From the NCBI GenBank assembly GCA_036785375.1, contig JAWMAR010000074.1, positions 7,068,001-7,132,000 on the forward strand: 64,000 nt of DNA. The letters run 5' to 3'. Shown here one piece after another: positions 2,389-64,000 of this stretch. This DNA comes from Leucoraja ocellata. Its lineage: Eukaryota. A program made the translations under genes and the position numbers. The notes beneath the pieces are model-generated. The model was not told the origin of the DNA, ran no database searches, and was given only the letters and a program-made list of their open reading frames with translations. How positions within the stretch are numbered: position 1 is the first letter of the stretch; every line of letters starts with the position of its first letter.

Positions 2389-2617
2389 ATGTTTAAGAAG
2401 GAACTGCAGTTGCTGGAAAATCGAAGGTAGAAAAAAATGCTGGAGAAAATTTGCGGGTGAGGCAGCATCTATGGAACGAAGGAAATAGGCAATGTTTTGG
2501 GTCAAAACCCTTCTTCAGACTGAAGAAGAGTTTCGACCCGAAACATTGCCTATTTCCTTCGCTCAATAGATGCTGCCTCACCCGCTGAGTTTCTCCAGCA
2601 TTTTTGTCTACCTTTGA
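2389..2617. mobile_element. Penelope-derived palindromic retroposon with hammerhead-like core
   Basis: ~95-bp inverted arms centred on ttcag-a-ctgaa (~2519). CTGAAGA..GAAAC core on the + arm; the - arm reads AAAAC. Flanked by 11-bp direct repeat tttgaggctac (2378-2388, 2618-2628). Confidence 0.8.
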
Positions 2618-4574: not shown

Positions 4575-4793
4575 ACTGAAAACAGACACAAAATGATGGA
4601 GTAACTCAGCAGGACAGGCAGCCAGTCTGGAGAGAAGGAATAGCTGAAGTTTCAGGTTGAGACCCTTCTTCAGACTCAAAACGTCATCCATTCCTTCTCT
4701 CCAAAGATGCTGCCTGTCCCGCTGGTGTTGAGTTACTCCAGCATTTTATGTCTATCTTTGGTTTAAACCAGCATCTGCAATTCATTCCTACAC
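4575..4793. mobile_element. Penelope-derived palindromic retroposon (older subfamily)
   Basis: Degenerate inverted arms around cccttcttcagac (~4663-4676), 3' tail aaaccagcatctgca, and 11-bp TSD actgtgttggg (4564-4574, 4794-4804). Confidence 0.75.
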
Positions 4794-5167
4794 ACTGTGT
4801 TGGGCCCACACTGGAATAAACAGTATGGTCCAGTTGCAGAGTGTCTGGCGATACCAAGGGCAGTGAAAGATCAGTACCTTGCCAATTAAAGAGAGCATAG
4901 CTCACTTTCAATATAGAACAAATATCTACCAGGAAATAATTTGATAGGGAAAGTTTTATATGGTGATATTACAGTAACTGATAAAGATTTATCATTACTA
5001 TATATTGCAGGTGTTGCTAAAGCAAATATTGATAAATATTAACATAGCAATTAGTTTCTGTAAATAGATAATTTGTGATGTAACAGACAATTTGTGCTGA
5101 TATCTACATCCGATTTTGTTTCTGCTCTTTCGAGTTACAAATTCTCAGTCAATTATATTTTTAGAAA

Positions 5168-5266
5168 GAAGATAGACACAAATAGCTGGAATAACTCAGC
5201 GGGCCAGGCAGCACCTCAGGAGAGAAGGAATGGGTGATGTTTTGGGTCGAGACCCTTCTTCAGACA
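5168..5266 (-). mobile_element. Penelope-derived fragment with degenerate hammerhead-like core
   Basis: Reverse complement reads tctgaagaagggtctcgacccaaaacatcaccc followed by the family body. Confidence 0.7.
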
Positions 5267-7777: not shown

Positions 7778-8127
7778 AGGCTCAGTTCAAGCAATCATTT
7801 ATCTGAAGAACCATCCTAATCTAAAGCATTGCCCGTCCATTCCCTCCACAATTGCTGCCCGACCCCGGAAATCATCCAGCATTATGTGCTTTGCAGAGGT
7901 AGGAAGAATATTGTTTATAATGAGAATCCAAACCTGAGGGGGTTTGTGTGTCCAGCAAATGAATTACAGTTGGCTCAACAAAATGGGACATGATTTTGAT
8001 GCATATTAAATTCAGATAATACTTATTCTAGGATATAAAGCATGGTACATAGTGATGGATGATGGTTTAGTGAGGGCTGTATTCCATTTACATTTTGACA
8101 TATCATTCTGTAGATTTCCCTTCAGGT

Positions 8128-10671: not shown

Positions 10672-11335
10672 CATGGCAGGGGGAACAGATAGTCCACATG
10701 CCAATTCCCCAGAAGGCGGGTTGGTATTTGAGTTCTATTTGTAGAGAGGTCAGATGCAACTTTGATGGGAAGGTTACATGATACCAGATCTGGTATTACT
10801 CCATTAGTACTAACAAACCTAGTTGGTCCATCAACTTATTGGCACAAATAATTGCTGAAGCAGTTGAGCAACATCTTGAGAACTTAAGCTCAGTTCCATT
10901 AAAATAATCAATGGTCGAAAAGTGAAATTTGCCCATTTCACAACAAAGGTGTGCATGAACGCACCAGTCACCATGCTGAGAAGGACATTAGCCCCTGCAA
11001 TGCTAACACCAGGTGACAGCATGAAGAACAGGCAGATTGTCATGAATAACTTGTTAATGCAATGTCAAGTTGGACTTCAATATCTAAGATAATGCCATGC
11101 TAAGTTGAACACACATTCAGCAGTCCCTCATTTTGCTCCCTCCACCACCTATATTATTTAAAGGAATTATCAAGTCCATGCAGGGTCGCAGCAGATTAAG
11201 GTAATTGTTTTTATTCCTTAGCTTCTTACCCGAGGCTTTCCCATCGCAGTTTCATCTGAGCCCTCTGCAAATAGAACAAATACCATTCTGTCTTCTGGGG
11301 GCTTGGCATGTGGACTATCTCTCTTCCCTGCCATG
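10672..11335. repeat. Imperfect ~100-bp inverted repeat (arms 10672-10773 and 11236-11335)
   Basis: Manual alignment gives 17 substitutions and one 2-nt indel over ~102 nt. No similarity to the other repeats in the window. Confidence 0.9.
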
Positions 11336-18917: not shown

Positions 18918-19447
18918 TTATTGGGAGAAATATTTTGGATTTCTTGAATTTTGTTCTGTACTTTGATTCATTATATTTGTTACAGAGGGAGAGAAAAACA
19001 GAAAATACAAATAATAAGAACATAACAATGGGTATGGGCCACCCGGCCCTTCAAGTTTGCTCCAGCGTTAATTGAGATCATGGTTAATGAATTGCTTCAA
19101 TTACATTTCCCCATCTGCAGTTCTCATATCTCCTTATTCCTTCTTTATTCAGAAATAAATCCATGACAGAGTTCCCACAACACTTGTTGAGAGAGAATTT
19201 CAAAGATTCATCACCTTCTATGTGAAAACCTTTCTCTTATCACAGTCCCAAATGGCCTCCCTCTCTTTCTGGGGTTGTGACTCCCTGGTTCCAGACTCCT
19301 CAGCTAGAAGAAGATCCTTCCTGCATCCAGCCTGTCAAGGTTTTCGTCCTGGATGTGTGGGGCACCAGCTACTCTCAAGATGCTTGACACCATACAGAGC
19401 AAAGCACATTCATTACTTGGCATCTCATCAACCATACTAAACTATAC

Positions 19448-19712
19448 CCCAGCGGTATGAACACTGACTTCTCTAACTTCAAATAGCTCTTGCTTTCCCA
19501 CTCTCCCCCTTCCATTCTCCCACCGGTCTTACTGCCTCCGACTACATTCTATCTCTGTCCCACCCACTACCTTGACATCGGTCTGAAGAAGGGTCTCGAC
19601 CCAAAACGTCACCAATTCTTTCTCTCCAGAGATGCTGCTTGTCCCGCTGAGTTACCCCAGCATTTTGTGCCTACCTTTGATTTAAACCAGCATCTGCAGT
19701 TCTTTCCTACAC
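19448..19712 (+). mobile_element. Penelope-like element 3' end: ORF terminus, 3'UTR and hammerhead-like motif
   Basis: 19448-19486 encodes PSGMNTDFSNFK*, resembling the GIY-YIG C-terminal P-x-G-x-N motif. It is followed by ggtCTGAAGAagggtctcgacccAAAACGTCacc (~19581-19613) and the tail shared with the palindromic elements. Confidence 0.75.
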
Positions 19713-19909
19713 ATATTAAACATTCATTCTCCCCACCACTAGCTCACAGTGACTGCAATGAATACTATCTATTAAATATAAAGTAGCAATAGCATTTAAA
19801 AAAACTCAAACTCTACCATCAAGAAGGACAAGGACAGATAGCATTTGGGGAACGCCACTGCAAGTTCCTCTCCATGTCATCTTGGAGAGTTATTGCCAGT
19901 ACCTACCCA

Positions 19910-25554: not shown

Positions 25555-26135
25555 ATCAGTCTGAAGAAGGGACCTAACCTCAAATATCACCTATCCATGT
25601 ACTCCAGGGCTAGAAATATAGAAAATAGTTGCAGGAGTAGGCCATTCGGCCTTTTTGAGCCAGTACCACCATTCAATATGATCATGGCTGATCATCCAAA
25701 ATCAGTATCCCGTTCCTGCTTTCTCCCCATATCCCTTGATTCAGTTAGCCCTCAGAGCTATATCTAACTCTCTCTTGAAAACATCCAGTGAACTGGCCTC
25801 CACTGCCTTCTGTGGTAGAGAATTCCACAGATTCACAACTCTCTGAGTGAAAAGGTTTTCCTCCTAAATGGCATACCCCTTATTTTTAAACTGTGACCCC
25901 TAGTTCTGGACTCCCCTAACATTGGGAACATTTGTGGGTGGGACTAAGGGGAAAAAAATTTCTTCGGCATGGACTTGTAGGGCCGAGATGGCCTGTTTCC
26001 GTGCTGTAATTGTTATATGGTTATATGGTTATATCTTTCTAAATTCCAGTGAATATACTGCAAGCCCAGTCAATCCATTCTTCAGGATGCTGCTTGACCT
26101 GCAGAGTTACTCCAGCACATTGTGTCTTCCTTCAT
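25555..26135. mobile_element. Degenerate Penelope-derived element interrupted by a CR1 3' end (-), itself holding a short + strand LINE tail
   Basis: cagtctgaagaaggg at ~25557, CR1 at 25611-26078, (GGTTATAT)n tail at ~26010-26033, PLE body resumes at ~26085. Confidence 0.65.
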
Positions 26136-26853: not shown

Positions 26854-28571
26854 ATTACCCCTCAGTGGCTCTGATTTCCAGTTTCTGCAGTATTTTGCTA
26901 TGTAATTTCCATCTTGCCAGATATTTATATTTTTCTCCAATCACAGTCTTCATCAAAATGTATATGCCAACTACTTGGTAACTTAATAAAATCCCAATTT
27001 TTTGTCCTTAGCTATAGTCCATATAATTTATGTGGTTCAACACCCACTCCTCATCACATATTTCCAGTACGGAAAGTTTTGCCTTTTACCATCAATATGC
27101 AAATACCCTCCTTCACAATATGCCAGTAAAACCAGCAATTTTCCATTATATAGCATTTATCAGCAAACCATAATTCATCTCACTTTGACAGGATGATATC
27201 ATTGAACTTTTTAAGTACCACTATTTTATCTCCTTTTATCCTACTTACTTTCTCTACCGCTGTAACAAATTGGAAAAGGCAAAATGCCAGTGCAGAGGCA
27301 TTGAAGGAACTGTATGTTCTTTTGCAGGTTGGCTCACAAAGACTTTCTTCAAAATAAAAAGCAAAGAACAGATACACATCGTTAAACTAGATTGCGAATT
27401 TACAAAACTGTTTTATTGCACAATTTTAGATTTACAACAGTTTTTGTTTTGCCAGTATTTCTCCATATGGTAACTTGGTGTGTTGTTCAAAGCCAGGTCC
27501 TTCTGCTGTGTTGAAGTGGGGTGAAGCCAGTAGATCTGGGTTTGGTATCATTGCTAATGCTGAAATGACCCTCTTTTCAGGTAGGTTAGACCCTGGGAGG
27601 AATCTTTCTCTCTTGCCTTCCCAGATGTTGGTATGTGTAGAGCCAGGTATCTTAGTGTTATTATTAGGGGAGAAAACAACATTGTGATGCAGGAGTGAGC
27701 CACATCATTCTTATTGCTCAGAAGCCAGGAGTTAGTGAGAATCAGTCAACATTGATAAATAAAAATTACTAGGTCATTATCAGACTGGCTGAGGTAATAT
27801 TTTCTTCATTTCAAAGATACTTAATCAACTGAAAAGTACATTGGAATATCCTAAGAATGACGCAAAAGGCACTAGGTTAGTTTTCTTAATGTACATTGAC
27901 AATATATCAAAGCCTTTTGAGATAGTCCTATAAACAGCATGCAACGTTGCAGAGTAGATCACCTACAACATGAGTTTACAGGTATACAAGCAGGAGGTGC
28001 TTTTAGAAAAACCTTCTGCCATTTACACCTTTGATCTTGTGCTTGACCCTATAAGAAATCCGTATTGGATAATCAATATTTAACTTATTTTTTCTAGTGG
28101 TGTGAGAAAAAAGTGTGATTGATTTTCAAGACCAAAAATTCTATCATACCATTTTACATTTAGATTTTAACGAGCCTCTTCATATTTTTTGCTAAGGTCT
28201 TTGTGCATCTTAAATATTATCAAGGCAGATTACAGAAATACTTATGGTAAACTCTACTGTTTCAACGATTACAAGTTATAGGAGTGGAATTAGGCCATTT
28301 GGCCCATTGAGTCTACTCCACCATTCAATTATGGGTGATCTCTGCCTCCTAATTCAATTTTCCTGCCTTCTCCCCATAACCCTTGACATCTGTTCTAATC
28401 AAGAAATTATGTGGACTGGGAGTACCTGTGGCTGGGATTTATTTTCTCTTTAAGTGAAGAAAATACCTACAGTCATTGCAAGATTGAGCATTTTATGCCA
28501 ACAGTCCGTCACATAAATAGTCCAATAGTCAAATTATTGGTAATTGCCAAACTAACAATGCACTGTTTAAG

Positions 28572-28705
28572 GTAGACAAAAATGCTGAAACTCAGCGGGT
28601 GAGGCAGCATCTATGGAGCGAAGGATAGGTGACGTTTCGAGTCGAGACCCTTCTTCAGACTGAAGGGCCTCGACCCGAAACATTACCTATTCCTCCGCTC
28701 CATAG

Positions 28706-28737
<32 letters not shown>

Positions 28738-29761
28738 TTTATTTATAGAGCACTTTAAAAACAAACATAGCTGCAACAAAGTGCTGTACATCACTAATCA
28801 TTGACAAAAAAGTTAATACGCACCAAAAATAACAATCAAAAGAAATAGTAGGAAAAGACATGTAAAATAAAGAAACATCAAAAACACCACAAACAGAAGC
28901 AAAGCCTCAGGCACGGTCAAAAGCCAGGGAGTACAAATGCGTTTTAACACTGGATTTGAAGATGGACAGTGAGGGGGCCTGTCTGATGTGCAACGGCAGG
29001 GTGTTCCAGATTGCCGGAGCAGCAACAGAGAAGGCTCTATCCCCTCTGAGCCTCCGACTAGACCTCGGTACCTCCAGGAGCAGCTGACCAGCTGACCTGA
29101 GGGACCGGGCAGGAGCGTATGGGTGGAGCAGCTCAGAGAGGTAAGGCGGGGCGAGCCCATTCAGAGATTTAAAAACAAATAACAGTATCTTAAAATGAAC
29201 CCGAAAGTGCACCGGGAGCCAGTGTAGGGAGGCCAGAATTGGCGATATGTGCTCCCTCTTTCGAGTCCCTGTTAAAAGGCGAGCAGCAGCATTCTGAACC
29301 AACTGGAGACGAGCCAGTGAAGAACGAGCAACACCAAAATAGAGCGCGTTACAGTAATCCAGCCTAGATGTAATAAAGGCATGGATTACTGTCTCAAAAT
29401 GCTGCCGCTCGAGAATGGGCTTCACCTTCGCCAGCTTCCTTAGGTGAAAGAAGCTGGACTTAACCACCGCGCATATTTGGCGATCTAATTTAAAGTCACT
29501 GTCCATCCTAAAACCCAGGTTCACAACTGTTGGCTTCACGTACCTTGACAATGGACCTAAATCAACAAATGGAGGTTCACGGCAGCCATTGGGATCAAAT
29601 AAAATCACCTCTGTCTTCTTTTCATTAAATCCAAGAAAGTTTAGGGCCAACCAGGACTTAATGTCATCAAGACAAGACACAAGCCTCACCCGCTGAGTTT
29701 CTCCAGCATTTTTGTCTACCTTTGATTTTTCCAGCATTTGCAGTTCTTTCTTAAACTTATC
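28572..29761. mobile_element. Penelope-derived palindromic retroposon split by an L2 insertion
   Basis: Left part 28572-28707, right part 29683-29761, 11-bp TSD cactgtttaag (28561-28571, 29762-29772). Minus strand 28628-28661 reads agtCTGAAGAagggtctcgactcGAAACGTCacc. Confidence 0.8.
28708..29682 (-). mobile_element. L2-clade LINE 3' portion (young)
   Basis: [46 protein letters not shown] and (ATT)n tail. Near-identical to 38422-39110. Confidence 0.92.
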
Positions 29762-30203: not shown

Positions 30204-31085
30204 GTAACTATTTCTTTATTGTATTTAGCATCATGGCTTTTAAGATAACATTGAAGATAGGCAATGATTCATGGTAGTATTATCTGCAATTTGAAACAAT
30301 CATTGGTGGATGTTAATTGCACAAAGATTCTTCACATTTTATACCTGTGAAACTAAACAAATACAGTCAAGATCCATGTTTCTAACTATAAGATCACATG
30401 ACAAACTAGTTGAGTCTTGCTCATTCCTAAAATGAATTAATTTTGTTTCCTGAATTTTCTCCCGACTGAAGAATTATTATCACAGGCCAATTGGAGAATG
30501 GTGGAACATATCTCAGAATCGGTGTCTATTCATAGCTAAATTGGAACAAAAAGCTGAACAACCTTTTGCCTGATAATTTTCTACTAACTTGAATGATTTT
30601 ATTAATTGGTCTTTGAAGTAAATATTTGTTTACTAATGCATGTCAACTTCCACTTAGAACATAATTATTTCCAGTTTATGATTATGAACAAATGATTGAT
30701 TTCTGCACAAAGCTATTTGAGCACAATAATCAATTAAATGAGTAATTGCACAAATTGGAAATAATCAGCTCTTCCATCAGTGCAACTATAATTAGGAATG
30801 AGAGGAATACTAAAGCCAAGAATCTATCTGAAATTAGTTTGTGTACTCGAAATACATTGCAGTTAAAATGTAATCAACTCTATTTTATCATATAATTATT
30901 CATGGTTTGGAAATAAACTGGGTCAATATTGAGAGAAGACTCGTGACCAACCAATCGCACTCTCCATTTGACCATGTTCTCACCCAGACCAGCTGCTACA
31001 GCCACAAGTGTTTCTACTCGTTTGACAGCAGTAACAATTTGCAGTGGCCAATTAACTGCCTGCCACCACCCCCCAAACATTAAAC

Positions 31086-32245
31086 AGAGAAACATAGAAA
31101 GATAGAAAGTAGGTGCAGCAGTGGGCCATTCGGCCCTTTGAGCCAGCACCGCCATTCAATATGACCATGGCTGATCATCTAAAATCAGTTCCTGCTTTTT
31201 CCCCATATCCTTTGATTCCTTTAGACCTAATAGCTAAATCTAACTCTCTCTTGAAAACATCCAGTTAATTGGCCTCCACTGCCTTCTGTGGCAGAGAATT
31301 CCACAGATTCACAACTCTCAAGGTGAAGAAGTTTGTCCTCATCTCAGTCCTAAATGGCCTACCTCTTATTCTTAAACTGTGACCCCTGGTTCTGGACTCC
31401 CCCAACATTTGGAACATTTTTCCTACATGTAGGCTGTCCAATCCTTTAAGAATTTATACGAATCCCTCTCATCCTTCTAAATTCCAATGAATACAAGCCC
31501 AGTCAACCCATTCTATCATCATATGTCAGTCCTCCCATCCCGGGAATTACCATAGAAACATAGAAAATAGGTGCAGGAGTAGGCCATTCGGCCCTTCGAG
31601 CCTGCACTGCCATTCAATATGATCATGGCTGATCATCCAACTCAGTATCCTGTACCTGCCTTCTCTCCATACCCCATGATCCCCTTAGCCACAAGGGCCA
31701 CATCTAACTCCCTCTTAAATATAGCCAATGAACTTGCCTCAACTACCTTCTGTGGCAGAAAATTCCAGAGATTCACCACTCCCTGTGTGAATCTATTCTA
31801 TTGCTCAACAAATGTTTTTCTCATCTCGGTCCTAAAAGACTTCCCCCTTATCCTTAAACTGGACCCCTTGTTCTGGATTTCCCCAACATCGGGAACAATC
31901 TTCCTGCATCTAGCCTGTCCAACCCCTTAAGAATTTTGTAAGTTTCTATAAGATCTCCCCTCAATCTTCTAAATTCTAGCGAGTACAAGCCAAGTCTATC
32001 GAGTCTTTCTTCATATGAAAGTCCTGACATCCCAGGAATCAGTCTGGTGAACCTTCTCTGTACTCCCTCTATGGCAAGAATGTATTTCCTCAGATTAGGA
32101 GACCAAAACTGTACTCAATACTCCTGGTGTGGTCTCACCAAGACCCTGTGCAACTGCAGTAGAACCTCCCTGTTCCTATACTCAAATCCTGGTGAACCTA
32201 CACTGCACTCCCTCAATAGCAATAATGTCCTTCCTCAAATTAGAA
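31086..32245 (-). mobile_element. Two nested CR1 3' ends (older 31086-31550 resuming ~32189; younger 31551-32188)
   Basis: Two (CATAGAAA)n tails and duplicated ORF2 C-terminal sequence. Confidence 0.88.
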
Positions 32246-33857: not shown

Positions 33858-33950
33858 AAGTAGACAAAAATTGCTGGAGAAACTCAGCGGGTGAGGCAGC
33901 ATCTATGGAGAAAAGGAGTAGGCGAAGTTTTGGGTCAAGACCCTTCTTCA
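33858..33950 (-). mobile_element. Penelope-derived single-arm fragment
   Basis: gtagacaaaaattgctggagaaactcagcggg..gacccttcttca. Confidence 0.72.
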
Positions 33951-34983: not shown

Positions 34984-35112
34984 CTGAAGAAGGAGGGTCC
35001 TGACCCGAAACGTCACCCATCCATATCTTCTAGAGATACTGCCTCATACTGAGTAACTCCAGCACTTTGTGTCTTTTTTGTAAACTTCCATCCGTAGTTC
35101 GATGTGTCTACA
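34984..35112 (+). mobile_element. Penelope-derived fragment with hammerhead-like core
   Basis: ctgaagaaggagggtcctgacccGAAACGTCaccc followed by a degenerate family body. Confidence 0.65.
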
Positions 35113-38421: not shown

Positions 38422-39110
38422 CATTTTGAGACAGTAATCCATGCCTTTATTACATCTAGGCTGGATTACTGTAACGCGCTCTATTTTGGTGTTGCTCGTT
38501 CTTCACTGGCTCGTCTCCAGTTGGTTCAGAATGCTGCTGCTCGCCTTTTAACAGGGACTCGAAAGAGGGAGCACATATCGCCAATTTCTGGCCTCCCTAC
38601 ACTGGCTCCCGGTGCACTTTCGGGTTCATTTTAAGATACTGTTATTTGTTTTTAAATCTCTGAATGGGCTCGCCCCGCCTTACCTCTCTGAGCTGCTCCA
38701 CCCATACGCTCCTGCCCGGTCTCTCAGGTCAGCTGGTCAGCTGCTCCTGGAGGTACCGAGGTCTAGTCGGAGGCTCAGAGGGGATAGAGCCTTCTCTGTT
38801 GCTGCTCCGGCACTCTGGAACACCCTGCCGTTGCACATCAGACAGGCCCCCTCACTGTCCATCTTCAAATCCAGTGTTAAAACGCATTTGTACTCCCTGG
38901 CTTTTGACCATGCCTGAGGCTTTGCTTCTGTTTGTGGTGTTTTTGATGTTTCTTTATTTTACTTGTCTTTTCCTACTATTTCTTTTGATTGTTATTTTTG
39001 GTGTGTATTAACTTTTTTTGTCAATGATTAGTGATGTACAGCACTTTGTTGCAGCTATGTTTGTTTTTAAAGTGCTCTATAAATAAAATTATTATTATTA
39101 TTATTATTAT
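38422..39110 (+). mobile_element. L2-clade LINE 3' end (same subfamily as 28708-29682)
   Basis: Near-identical reverse complement of 28708-29400, with (ATT)n tail. Confidence 0.92.
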
Positions 39111-41172: not shown

Positions 41173-42067
41173 AATGCACAGTCTGTTTTCCAGGGTGGGG
41201 GAATTTTTTGATGTCGAAGAAAGCATTATTTTTTTAATGGAGTCTACTTTTGAAAGGTATGGACAGTAGAATGAGGTGGTGAATATAGTCTTTAAGAGCA
41301 AGAAGATTGGAGAAACATGGGCTTTTTAACAAAAGAAAATATTTGCGAAGTGTTTCTGTGGAGTTGCATCAGGGGATAGGTGAATAAGGTCAGAAGGTAA
41401 ATGTGAAGAATCCTTTGTGACAAAATGATTGAAATTAGGAAGATTATATCCACAACTTCTATTTTCCACAAAGATAATTTAAGGTTTGGAATAGATTTCT
41501 ACTGGAGGGGTAATGCAAAATTTGTGACTCTTGATGTTACAAAAGGAAAACATAGGGCTGTTCTTGCTAAAGGACATGGATCAATGAGATTTGAGGTGAG
41601 CGGGACAGATCACTATTAATAAGGTGTACAGTGAGGAAAATGGTTGGAAAGCAATTCGGGGAAGAAGTTGGATTCAGACCCATGTTAGCAGCTTTTTTTG
41701 CAGATGTGTAAAAGTAACAATGTTAGGGTCAATTTTGGAAAGTGAAGAATGCGATTACTTGTGGTTTTGGCTGCAACAATTGAAAACTGTGTTCTTTATC
41801 ATAATAGGACTCAAGATCATCAAAATCAGGTACTGAACAGGACAGGACAGAATCATTGTCCAAGGAATCTGATTCAACTCAAAGAAAACAACAGGCCTAG
41901 GAATCTAAAGTGCAGCTCCCTTGAACTTGGAGGAGATTGATGGCAAGCAAAAAGTAAACCATTGACCTCTGGAGTTAATAATATACCGTGGGGAAAATTC
42001 ATCATTTGTGACAAGTTAGACGTGATGGAATGGTTAGGGGCAGTTGAGCAAGTTAGGATAACAGGTG

Positions 42068-42280
42068 TTTAAGAGGGAACTGCAGATGCTGGAGAATCGA
42101 AGGTTACACAGAAAAGCTGGAGAAACTCAGCGGGTGCAGCAGCATCTATGGAGCGAAGGAAATAGGCAACGTTTCGGGCCGAAACCCTGAAGAAGGGTTT
42201 CGGCCCGAAACGTTGCCTATTTCCTTCGCTCCATAGATGCTGCTGCACCCGCTGAGTTTCTCCAGCTTTTCTGTGTAACC
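42068..42280. mobile_element. Young Penelope-derived palindromic retroposon (perfect 89-bp hairpin, hammerhead-like core)
   Basis: Arms 42100-42188 and 42194-42282 are exact reverse complements. CTGAAGA-A-gggtttcggccc-GAAACGTT at 42187-42214. 15-bp TSD ttaggataacaggtg (42053-42067, 42281-42295). Confidence 0.85.
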
Positions 42281-42418
42281 TTAGGATAACAGGTGGTGCC
42301 TAACTTACAATTTCTGTTTATAATTTTAGATTTCAAGCAGCTGCAGTATTTTCCCTTCAGATAAACAAGAAAATGTGAGAAAGAAGGGTTCTGTGCAGTA
42401 GAATCAGGAGATGGTACA

Positions 42419-47574: not shown

Positions 47575-48269
47575 TACTCAGGTCCTGTGCATGGACTCGG
47601 CATGAATCGTTCTATATAGCATTGTATGAGCATGCCTTGCCTTCCTGCCTCGATGTGCCCCAAATTTAAAATGTTCCAGTTGGCATCTGCCCAATTTCAT
47701 CTAATATTTCAAAGGAGTTATGTGTTCAGCACTAATTGGAATTTAAAGGCAAGATTTATAAAGTGACAGAATAATCCAGTGGTGTAATTCTCACCTTTTG
47801 TTCAGCAGATTGGGAGTTTAAAACTGCATGCCAGGACACCCGAGGACAGGCCTGGACTGTCACGATGGTCTTTTGACAGGATGCAGCTGTCAAAGGCATT
47901 CATATTGGTTTTAAATATTTCTAACTATTAGAATCATACACTTCAAATGGGGTTAAATAACAATTTTGTTCAAAAGCATCTTTCAGTGCTAAAAACTAAA
48001 TCAAGATTTGAATGGTCAATAAAAAAGGAAATAAACACTTTACAACATTAACCCTTTCAAGCGATGTTCACTTCAAGTGCATTCAGCTTCTCAGCTCCCT
48101 CCTCTGATGTTTCAGTCCCACATCGGGAGACATAAGGCTGAGTCCAGCAGAAAAGAGGAACCTTCAGCACATTCTGGACCTTCAGCCTGACTTCACAGGT
48201 AAGATGTTTTTTAAGCAGAAACTGCTGACACCCAGTATCAATCGGCAAAATTCCAAACATTAAACATTA

Positions 48270-48564: not shown

Positions 48565-48790
48565 GGAGGCAAGAAAGGTCTAAAACAAATCAGGGCCGGC
48601 AACAGGTGGCCTCGGGAAAGGGGGAGACGATAATGGATGTGCTAACGAAAGGGATAGCAATGCAAACAGTGGAACTAGGAGAGCCACTAGCGTGGGGGGG
48701 GGGGGGGGGGGTGGGGGGGGGGGGAGGGAATGCAGGAGTTACTTGAAGTTACAGAAATCAATGTTCACACCGCTGGGTTGTAAACTACCC
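48565..48790 (-). mobile_element. Penelope-like element ORF terminus and 3'UTR fragment
   Basis: Minus strand 48789-48739 encodes GSLQPSGVNIDFCNFK*, homologous to 19448-19486. Confidence 0.7.
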
Positions 48791-55475: not shown

Positions 55476-55551
55476 TTGGTAAGTGCTTTGATTGCAGACT
55501 ATAGGTAATCCAGATCCCAGAGGCATACAAGAAGGCAGGGCTCATAGTTGT

Positions 55552-55736
55552 TTAAGAAGGAACTGCAGATGCTGGAAAATCGAAGGTACACAAAAATGCT
55601 GGAGAAACTCAGCGGGTGCAGCAGCATCTATGGAGCGAAGGAAATAGGCAACGTTTCGGGCCAAAACGTTGTCCATTTCCTTCGCTCCATAGATGCTGCT
55701 GCACCCGCTGAGTTTCTCCAGCATTTTTGTGTACCG
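55552..55736. mobile_element. Penelope-derived palindromic retroposon (hammerhead core deleted at the apex)
   Basis: ~72-bp arms within 55585-55735. TSD ggg[c/a]tcatagttgt (55538-55551, 55737-55750). Confidence 0.82.
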
Positions 55737-62038: not shown

Positions 62039-62361
62039 ACATACAGATAAAGCAAATACTGATATCTCTTCAAAAGAGAACACGAGGAAAACTCTGTTGA
62101 TTCTGAGCCTTTAGCAATAGTTGTGAACCGGGTCAGGCAGCATCTCTGGAGAATATGAATTGACAATGTTTCAGGCAGAAGGGTCCCAACCTGAATCTTT
62201 GCCACTCCATGTTCTCCAAAGATGCTGACGGACTCAATGAAAGACTTTGTACCTATTCGGTTTACTCAGCCTTGCTTAACTCCAGTTCATACCGCTGCCT
62301 TGATGAATCTTGCCGCTGGTGTCTGGAAGTACAATCATTAGATGTCTCTGCACCAGACTTA

Positions 62362-63383: not shown

Positions 63384-63509
63384 GCGTGGAATCAGTCTGA
63401 GGAGGGTCTCGACCCGAAATGTCACCCATTCCTTCTCTCCAGATACGCTGCCTGTCCAGCATTTTGTCTCTGCCTTCGATTTAAACCAGCATCTGCAGTT
63501 CTTTACCAC
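63384..63509 (+). mobile_element. Penelope-derived single-arm insertion starting just upstream of the hammerhead-like core
   Basis: cagtCTGAGGAgggtctcgacccGAAATGTCaccc; TSD attata[c/t]gtagaat (63370-63383, 63510-63523). Confidence 0.75.
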
Positions 63510-64000
63510 ATTATATGTAGAATTTTACATTGTAATTTTGCAACACTGGAAATCGGTAAAGTGACTGACTGCAGATATGAATTTTGGAGAATTGATTGGC
63601 TGATTAGTGTATTTGAACATTGATGGTCCAAAAATACTTTCCTTTAGGTTCAATTCTTTTGAACATGGAGCAAATGAGGGGAATTGGAAAGTAGGAGGAT
63701 GGGGTGCAAATATTACCTTCTCAAAGGCAATTGGGGGCATGCAATAAAATGCTGGATTTACTAGTGATGTTGAAATTCTCAAAATAACTTTTAAAAAGAA
63801 TAAAACACTTAACAACATATACCTTTTCAGACAAGGTGGGTGATGCCATTTGATTGAATGGGGGCTATCGCATAGGTCCAATGTTAAAGGTTTGTTTATT
63901 GTCACATGTACCAATTAAGGTTCAGTGAAATTCAGATTACCATACAGTCATACCAATAAAAGGGAACAAGACACCCAAATACATTTTTAACATGAACATC

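Follow-up and report, generated by a model that had tools for sequence, protein, structure and literature searches.

A recent head-to-head palindromic insertion of Penelope-like type in Leucoraja ocellata and its possible assembly from two cDNAs

A 15-bp direct repeat exactly bounds the interval 42053-42295 of the window (the whole 64-kb stretch of DNA analysed) and encloses a palindromic element of 213 bp (42068-42280). The repeat is a target-site duplication with its left copy at 42053..42067 and its right copy at 42281..42295 (plus strand); contigs with an empty site retain one copy. Two arms (42100-42188 and 42194-42282) are complementary at 89/89 positions around the loop GAAGA, as a first-pass annotation had reported (a perfect inverted repeat of 89 bp, 5-nt loop). 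By arm comparison, both span positions 13-100 of a repeated module. One (42100..42188, minus strand) is without the CUGAAGA core and alone carries a tail of ~34 nt (42068..42101, minus strand), an imperfect repeat of the adjoining 26 nt; the other (42194..42282, plus strand) is tail-less. The junction (42187..42193, plus strand) consists of a 2-nt overlap (CT) and the 5-nt loop, equals the CUGAnGA box of a hammerhead and belongs to the tail-less arm only. A minimal type I hammerhead motif, recognised by motif match and by the fold of stem II, occupies 42187..42214 (plus strand). At the outer ends, the final 3 nt of the left duplication also match the tail end of the element (microhomology), and the last 2 nt of the tail-less arm (42281-42282) are common to the duplication. 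The RNA fold of this palindrome (apex 42191) has z = -27, with equally stable folds in 0/200 shuffles.

The first-pass annotation had proposed that empty sites be sought, and all three public DNA runs compared have an empty site (one is from a second sample with the same species label, two come under other labels). In each, a single contig joins 42052 to 42281; its continuity sizes the insertion at 228 bp including one duplication. The insertion at 42068-42280 is very recent, as it is absent from the second sample of the same species label. Nine flank letters and a 14-nt gap set that sample apart from the window, so that it represents a distinct haplotype. At six positions of the flanks (41750-42410), all three DNA runs agree on a letter unlike the window, which indicates that the insertion-carrying haplotype is itself derived. 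An assembly artefact is an unlikely source of the palindrome given the clean duplication and the empty site, all runs compared being empty-site runs.

The module is numbered here from the T of TCAGT (position 1) and has a constant order: TCAGT, CUGAAGA, a bulged A, a 4-bp stem, GAAA, CG and UH, followed by ~65 nt and then by a tail of ~35 nt. The hammerhead of the 42191 copy comprises CUGAAGA, the bulged A, a 4-bp stem II, GAAA and a palindromic CG, and is predicted to be cut after 42214 (module position 33). Helix I is only 2-3 bp by eye (2 bp in the 42191 copy). The motif and stem II are present in 9/10 arms scanned, with the stem broken in one; an Rfam search of the module returned 0 matches at gathering score. 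The tail measures about 34-37 nt in 5/5 of the palindromes that the first-pass annotation named and weakly repeats the 26 nt in front of it (27/2000 shuffles reach the score of this repeat, taken on the 55549 copy), as might be expected of two similar reverse transcriptase (RT) start sites.

The identity of the module is given by a longer single copy found by profile search (19440..19713, plus strand), which holds an ORF end, a 3' UTR, the hammerhead and the tail. Upstream of the module, this copy runs via a pyrimidine-rich 3' UTR into the last ~13 codons of an ORF (19440-19486), which resemble the ends of GIY-YIG domains of Penelope-like elements (PLEs), with Neptune1_Nv closest (a weak likeness by eye). 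The ORF-linked copy ties the module to a PLE, and together with the match to a minimal type I hammerhead it bears out the earlier description of a Penelope-type end with a hammerhead-like core. On balance, the 42068-42280 insertion is probably a dead-on-arrival product of the RT/GIY-YIG protein of an endonuclease-bearing PLE, whose clade is possibly Neptune; the window itself holds no RT sequence. Pfam returned 0 matches for two ORF ends of 20-21 aa in the window. A second Penelope-like family is represented by a related 16-codon ORF end at 48742-48789 (minus strand) followed by a C-rich 3' UTR, downstream of which the profile search found no hammerhead.

Two other identities were rejected. 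Non-LTR retrozymes are ruled out, as the tandem head-to-tail units that define them, every one with its complete hammerhead, are missing: all window copies of the module are single or head to head. A MITE or other DNA transposon is ruled out by the unpaired tail at one end and by the existence of single-arm and ORF-linked copies; duplications that vary in length (10-15 bp) and in sequence also count against a MITE. A pattern scan with the arm gave 0 matches in metagenome and viral contigs, and a scan with the core gave 0 in prokaryote genomes and one metagenome match, at a contig end with an unrelated flank.

A profile search of the window gave 21 matches, which make up six palindromes and seven single-arm copies, with the arms head to head in 6/6 palindromes. 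The five palindromes named before (apices ~2519, ~4675, ~28659, ~42191 and ~55660) all exist, and a decayed sixth (62128..62238; arms 70% identical, tails not recognisable) was absent from that list. The copy at 2389..2614 has the apex TCAG-A-CTGA at 2519, a tail on its left arm, arms 90% identical and a ~13-bp duplication. The copy at 4584..4794 (apex 4675) belongs to an older subfamily (arms 83% identical, ~11-13-bp duplication), its tail-less arm starting at position 3 and its tailed arm at ~21-25. At 28568..29757 (apex 28659; 11-14-bp duplication), the tail-less left arm reaches position 1, while the tailed right arm is 3 nt short near the apex and is interrupted by a ~980-bp LINE-type insert (28708-29686), beyond which it resumes at 29687. 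In the copy at 55549..55735 (apex 55660; arms 96% identical, 14-bp duplication), the junction lies in a 15-nt quasi-palindrome around stem II. Direct repeats of 13-17 nt, with one mismatch allowed, occur at 5/5 copies, compared to 2/994 random pairs that reach 13.

The single-arm copies include two that are tail-less, at 33860..33950 (minus strand; from position 7) and 5169..5265 (minus strand; from position ~4, no clear duplication). The former has an exact 10-bp duplication (24/994 random pairs reach 10 with one mismatch allowed). A tailed single arm at 63391..63510 (plus strand) begins with ATCAGT and has a 14-bp duplication. Between its duplication and ATCAGT lies an 8-nt filler (63384-63391), loosely like the reverse complement of the tail end, which could be a very short second cDNA. 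Older, more diverged single arms from related hammerhead families occur at 7802-7890, 25555-26132 (split by a later insert) and 34984-35112.

Other features of the window were noted. The LINE-type insert at 28708-29686 has an (AAT)n end, and its segment 28715-29401 matches the oppositely oriented 38422-39110 at 99% identity, which indicates that a young LINE is active too. Within 31073-32190, two copies of a LINE-type 3' fragment (31093-31547 and 31551-32039, 74% identical) adjoin each other in one orientation. Inverted arms of 59 nt (10672-11335; 83% complementary, 546 nt apart) are unrelated to the Penelope module and possibly derive from an old DNA transposon. Short open frames at 48060-48205 run up to a strong splice-donor-like site (~48199) and form a possible plus-strand host exon; a splice-donor-anchored exon scan returned no exon there.

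The outer ends of the module copies take two values about 35 nt apart. Tailed arms end at positions 135-137 and tail-less arms at 95-100, with one of each in 5/5 named palindromes, so the earlier statement that one arm always lacks the tail stands. Both of the tail-less single-arm copies also end at the 95-100 site. At the inner ends, all 12 arm starts of the six palindromes fall at positions 1-27, and 6/7 single-arm copies start at positions 0-7. A uniform null gives the clustering of arm starts a probability of 4e-6 (positions 1-25 of 70), a figure that is indicative only, since long arms are picked up more readily and the alignment of one decayed arm begins at 27. Since single-arm and palindromic copies alike stop at the 5' edge of the hammerhead, the clustering of apices is a property of where the cDNA ends. 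Ribozyme cutting is ruled out as its cause, as the arms retain sequence upstream of the cut site (position 33).

The six window copies have six different apices, and no single fixed master palindrome, the source that the first-pass annotation had set against its own model, accounts for them. Arm junctions show short or quasi-palindromic overlaps. In three of the five named palindromes the tail-less arm has apex bases that are absent from the tailed arm (22 nt at 4675, 10-12 at 28659 and 7 at 42191), whereas at 2519 and 55660 the tailed arm is longer and supplies the central base. At the start of single-arm copies stands ATCAGT, the natural upstream sequence, and not the palindromic TTCAGT.

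Identity between the arms of one palindrome is 100, 96, 93, 90, 83 and 70% across the six copies. The arms of one palindrome share subfamily letters, across four subfamilies, and arms from two subfamilies were found in 0/5 palindromes. Each arm of the 4675 copy is closer to some single copies (up to 84% and 88%) than to its partner arm (83%). Arm identity falls with age, and an older arm resembles its partner no more than it resembles other copies of that subfamily; the later homogenisation offered by the first-pass annotation as one explanation of matching arms has left no sign and finds no support. A FastTree phylogeny of the arms is poorly resolved and carries no weight here. The arms of the 42191 copy are identical because the copy is new. 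Perfect arms would mark any new insertion with a single source and are no guide to mechanism.

Four public runs (three of DNA, one of oligo-dT RNA, out of 24 listed) place the window copies within a large family, with about 70,000 contig pieces per DNA run (70,000-73,000). The first-pass annotation had held that the apex always falls at the ribozyme-like core. This agrees with the window and is too strong for the public runs, where 12 or 13 of the 15 joints listed (of 661) have at least one arm that starts beyond position 33; these 15 are a biased sample in which near-apex junctions are under-counted, since they align as small gaps. In all four runs the consensus of loose ends is ATCAGT, preceded by letters that agree poorly (0.37-0.41). 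Eight apex-spanning contig pieces differ in length from the 42191 copy by -8 to +5 nt. Five of the 15 listed joints connect a tail-length piece with a full opposite arm, although these may in part be alignment breaks at an indel of the 42191 copy itself (42104-42105). Among the joints listed, one recurrent joint sits on an AACGTT palindrome. Backward joints (42226/42227->42195 and 42217/42218->42187) recur with 1-4 extra letters at depths of 600-1500 in all three DNA runs, and are possibly short head-to-tail duplications or another apex type. An apex variant, 42188 T>G, occurs in 42, 62 and 55 contigs in three organisms and in 28/119 apex-covering RNA reads; its recurrence hints that some apices are inherited.

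The oligo-dT RNA run holds 13,698 family reads, with both directions about equal. Letters shared by the two arms of the 42191 copy, described earlier as found in no other copy, are private to it within the window and recur family-wide as minority letters in these reads. The majority letter is absent from 11% of reads at 42111, 21% at 42115, 15% at 42094 and 55% at 42107, values that are upper bounds, taken site by site, for the letters of the 42191 copy. The flanks of the 42191 insertion have zero depth in this RNA run, the DNA run of the same label having the empty site, and the module shows no RNA start or end peak in this one fragmented oligo-dT run. With copies pooled, A>G plus T>C changes make up 28/121 places in the RNA run and 17/92 in the same-label DNA run; no editing signal stands out from the variation among copies, and these counts argue neither for nor against the ADAR substrates suggested by the first-pass annotation.

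Taken together, the anatomy of the arms tips the balance toward an origin of the palindromes from two separately primed cDNAs. Both target-strand nicks would prime cDNA, at two RT start sites; both cDNAs would stop near the 5' end of the RNA and would be joined by microhomology. The word ATCAGT at this putative RNA 5' end resembles an initiator. Priming from both nicks would yield head-to-head arms, one of them tailed, between duplications, with no need of an antisense template. The apex would fall at the ribozyme core because this is where the cDNA ends, in a region with many self-complementary words, rather than because of ribozyme cutting. The one-sided apex bases in the tail-less arm of 3/5 palindromes favour two separate cDNAs over the fold-back of one. 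Also in favour of two cDNAs, two TCAG-A-CTGA ends pair at -6.9 kcal/mol compared to +0.6 for the DNA hairpin, and stem II has -3.5 kcal/mol as a DNA fold-back and -18.6 between molecules.

Biochemical background comes from the Poseidon element (PMC11167929). The purified protein nicks and extends both target strands in vitro, reverse transcription starts at two sites of the RNA whose spacing equals the tail, and the protein is predicted by modelling to be a dimer; these data concern a Poseidon element and show the two extensions without placing both on one target molecule, and the main text is silent on inverted copies. Uncut RNA serves as template in that system, with which a cut site that is not a copy boundary is consistent. 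The proposed RNA 5' end at ATCAGT is without direct precedent in D. virilis, since transcription there starts ~120 nt upstream of the ribozyme (a distance summed from PMC4209133 and PMC2377424). An Inr-like word is mentioned for a rotifer pLTR in PMC3846280. Against the two-cDNA account, junction sequence alone cannot tell annealing from snap-back or from a symmetric apex that was shortened later: all five named apices can be drawn as deletions from a symmetric apex, and 2519 and 55660 (2/5) fit snap-back unaltered. A palindrome with arms of two subfamilies (0/5) would have proved two templates.

The mechanism favoured by the first-pass annotation, in which cDNA snaps back on itself, draws weak support here and is rather unlikely while keeping some weight. 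One tailed cDNA would fold at TCAG/CTGA or at stem II, copy itself and undergo resolution at the edge of the tail, in which the endonuclease may act, with asymmetric apices arising from loop opening or later deletion. Arms that are always of one subfamily fit this model, as do the stability of the stem II hairpin in DNA (-3.5 kcal/mol) and the central base taken from the tailed arm at 2519 and 55660, and resolution by the endonuclease has been proposed for the tail (PMC8557442). As snap-back copies the second arm from the first strand, however, the first strand must hold the tail and every apex base, so that extra one-sided deletions are needed in 3/5 palindromes, including the copy that is missing from the second same-label sample. 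The TCAG-A-CTGA hairpin, on which folding was suggested to occur, is unstable in DNA (+0.6 kcal/mol), and the tail-less end is shared with single-arm copies, where there was no second arm in need of resolution. Self-priming at junction palindromes is not a new idea, having already been proposed in PMC3846280.

Re-amplification of ready-made hairpins is a less credible source. The palindromes would be transcribed and re-inserted as a non-autonomous hairpin family, with the apex coming from at least one master and both arms re-made from the 3' arm of the RNA in each round, so that they co-evolve. The 42188 T>G variant, explained by neither arm, recurs in contigs and RNA reads as such a family would have it, and several joints stand at 10-30 times single-copy depth; contig depth, however, is no copy number, and the G could stem from a mutated non-palindromic source. 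The one-apex-per-copy diversity of the window, the many apex lengths among contigs and the ATCAGT rather than TTCAGT start of single-arm copies speak against the model. A third possibility, that all palindromes were inserted with the symmetric apex TCAG-A-CTGA, later varied by hairpin-driven deletion while conversion kept the arms identical, accommodates every apex as the symmetric form minus a block between direct repeats of 2-15 nt (by eye) and is nevertheless very improbable, as conversion leaves no sign (identity decays with age and the 4675 arms are closer to single copies), the newest copy (42191) is already asymmetric and junctions far down the arm occur in public runs.

Beyond the two-cDNA account itself lies a bolder reading, which is unlikely on present data: the inverted pLTR and the one-sided tail would result from one event by a dimeric protein, and the palindrome would then become a self-perpetuating hairpin retroelement. 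Its transcript would carry both start sites, the two cDNAs would anneal over the whole arm, and the apex would be inherited while both arms were renewed from one RNA arm in each round. If true, this would amount to concerted evolution without gene conversion. Irrespective of this reading, the module family supplies the genome with short hairpins in large number, as well as with presence/absence markers. Its insertions are minimal, very numerous and still polymorphic; they reduce the element to its two ends and the junction and make two cDNAs versus snap-back testable on thousands of events.

The overall structure at 42191 is ordinary for the Penelope-like class, and its layout is already known. 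In twin priming of L1, a second target nick primes a second cDNA and the inversion is joined by microhomology, with the two cDNAs covering different parts of one RNA. By contrast, the cDNAs proposed here would start at two fixed sites and be for the most part copies of one ~90-nt stretch. The literature searched gives no account of Penelope inversions by two primings; such an account may already stand in subscription papers or in Repbase/Dfam notes, which lie beyond that search. How PLEs form inverted structures is named as an open problem in PMC8557442. What is added here is the proof of an empty site, together with a comparison of the arms one by one that speaks for two primings rather than snap-back.

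Inverted head-to-head pLTRs with a one-sided tail and short duplications are in print (PMC3846280 and PMC8557442). Similarly to Pen2a_Av and its kin, as described there, the window palindromes have head-to-head pLTRs, a tail at one end (30-40 bp in those elements) and a palindrome or overlap at the junction. The duplications are 11-15 bp in the window palindromes compared to 8-10 bp in Pen2a_Av and kin (PMC3846280). Unlike these elements, the 42191 insertion is the two ends alone, 213 bp without an ORF, and belongs to a family of very high copy number. Self-priming on an antisense template is proposed for them in PMC3846280, whereas the arm anatomy here points to two primings. Like PAc (Poseidon of Anolis carolinensis, PMC11167929), the module has a hammerhead and, ~100 nt downstream, two ends that bound a tail; it belongs to a different family, the ORF end being more Neptune-like (a weak likeness, 16 aa).

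The hammerhead agrees with the minimal type I hammerheads of metazoan PLEs in PMC4209133, sharing CUGAnGA, the bulged base, a G-C closing pair, GAAA and palindromic 15.2/16.2. It differs from those described there in its 4-bp stem II and 2-3-bp helix I, and in the mirror arm of the 42191 copy, which is without a complete core. In Schistosoma, PMC4209133 reports pairs of hammerheads on opposite strands 100-700 bp apart. Like the non-LTR retrozymes of 10.64898/2026.07.22.740005, the copies here are non-coding, derived from the pLTR of a PLE and equipped with a type I hammerhead; by contrast, non-LTR retrozymes are defined there by head-to-tail tandem ribozyme units, and the copies of this family are head to head or single.
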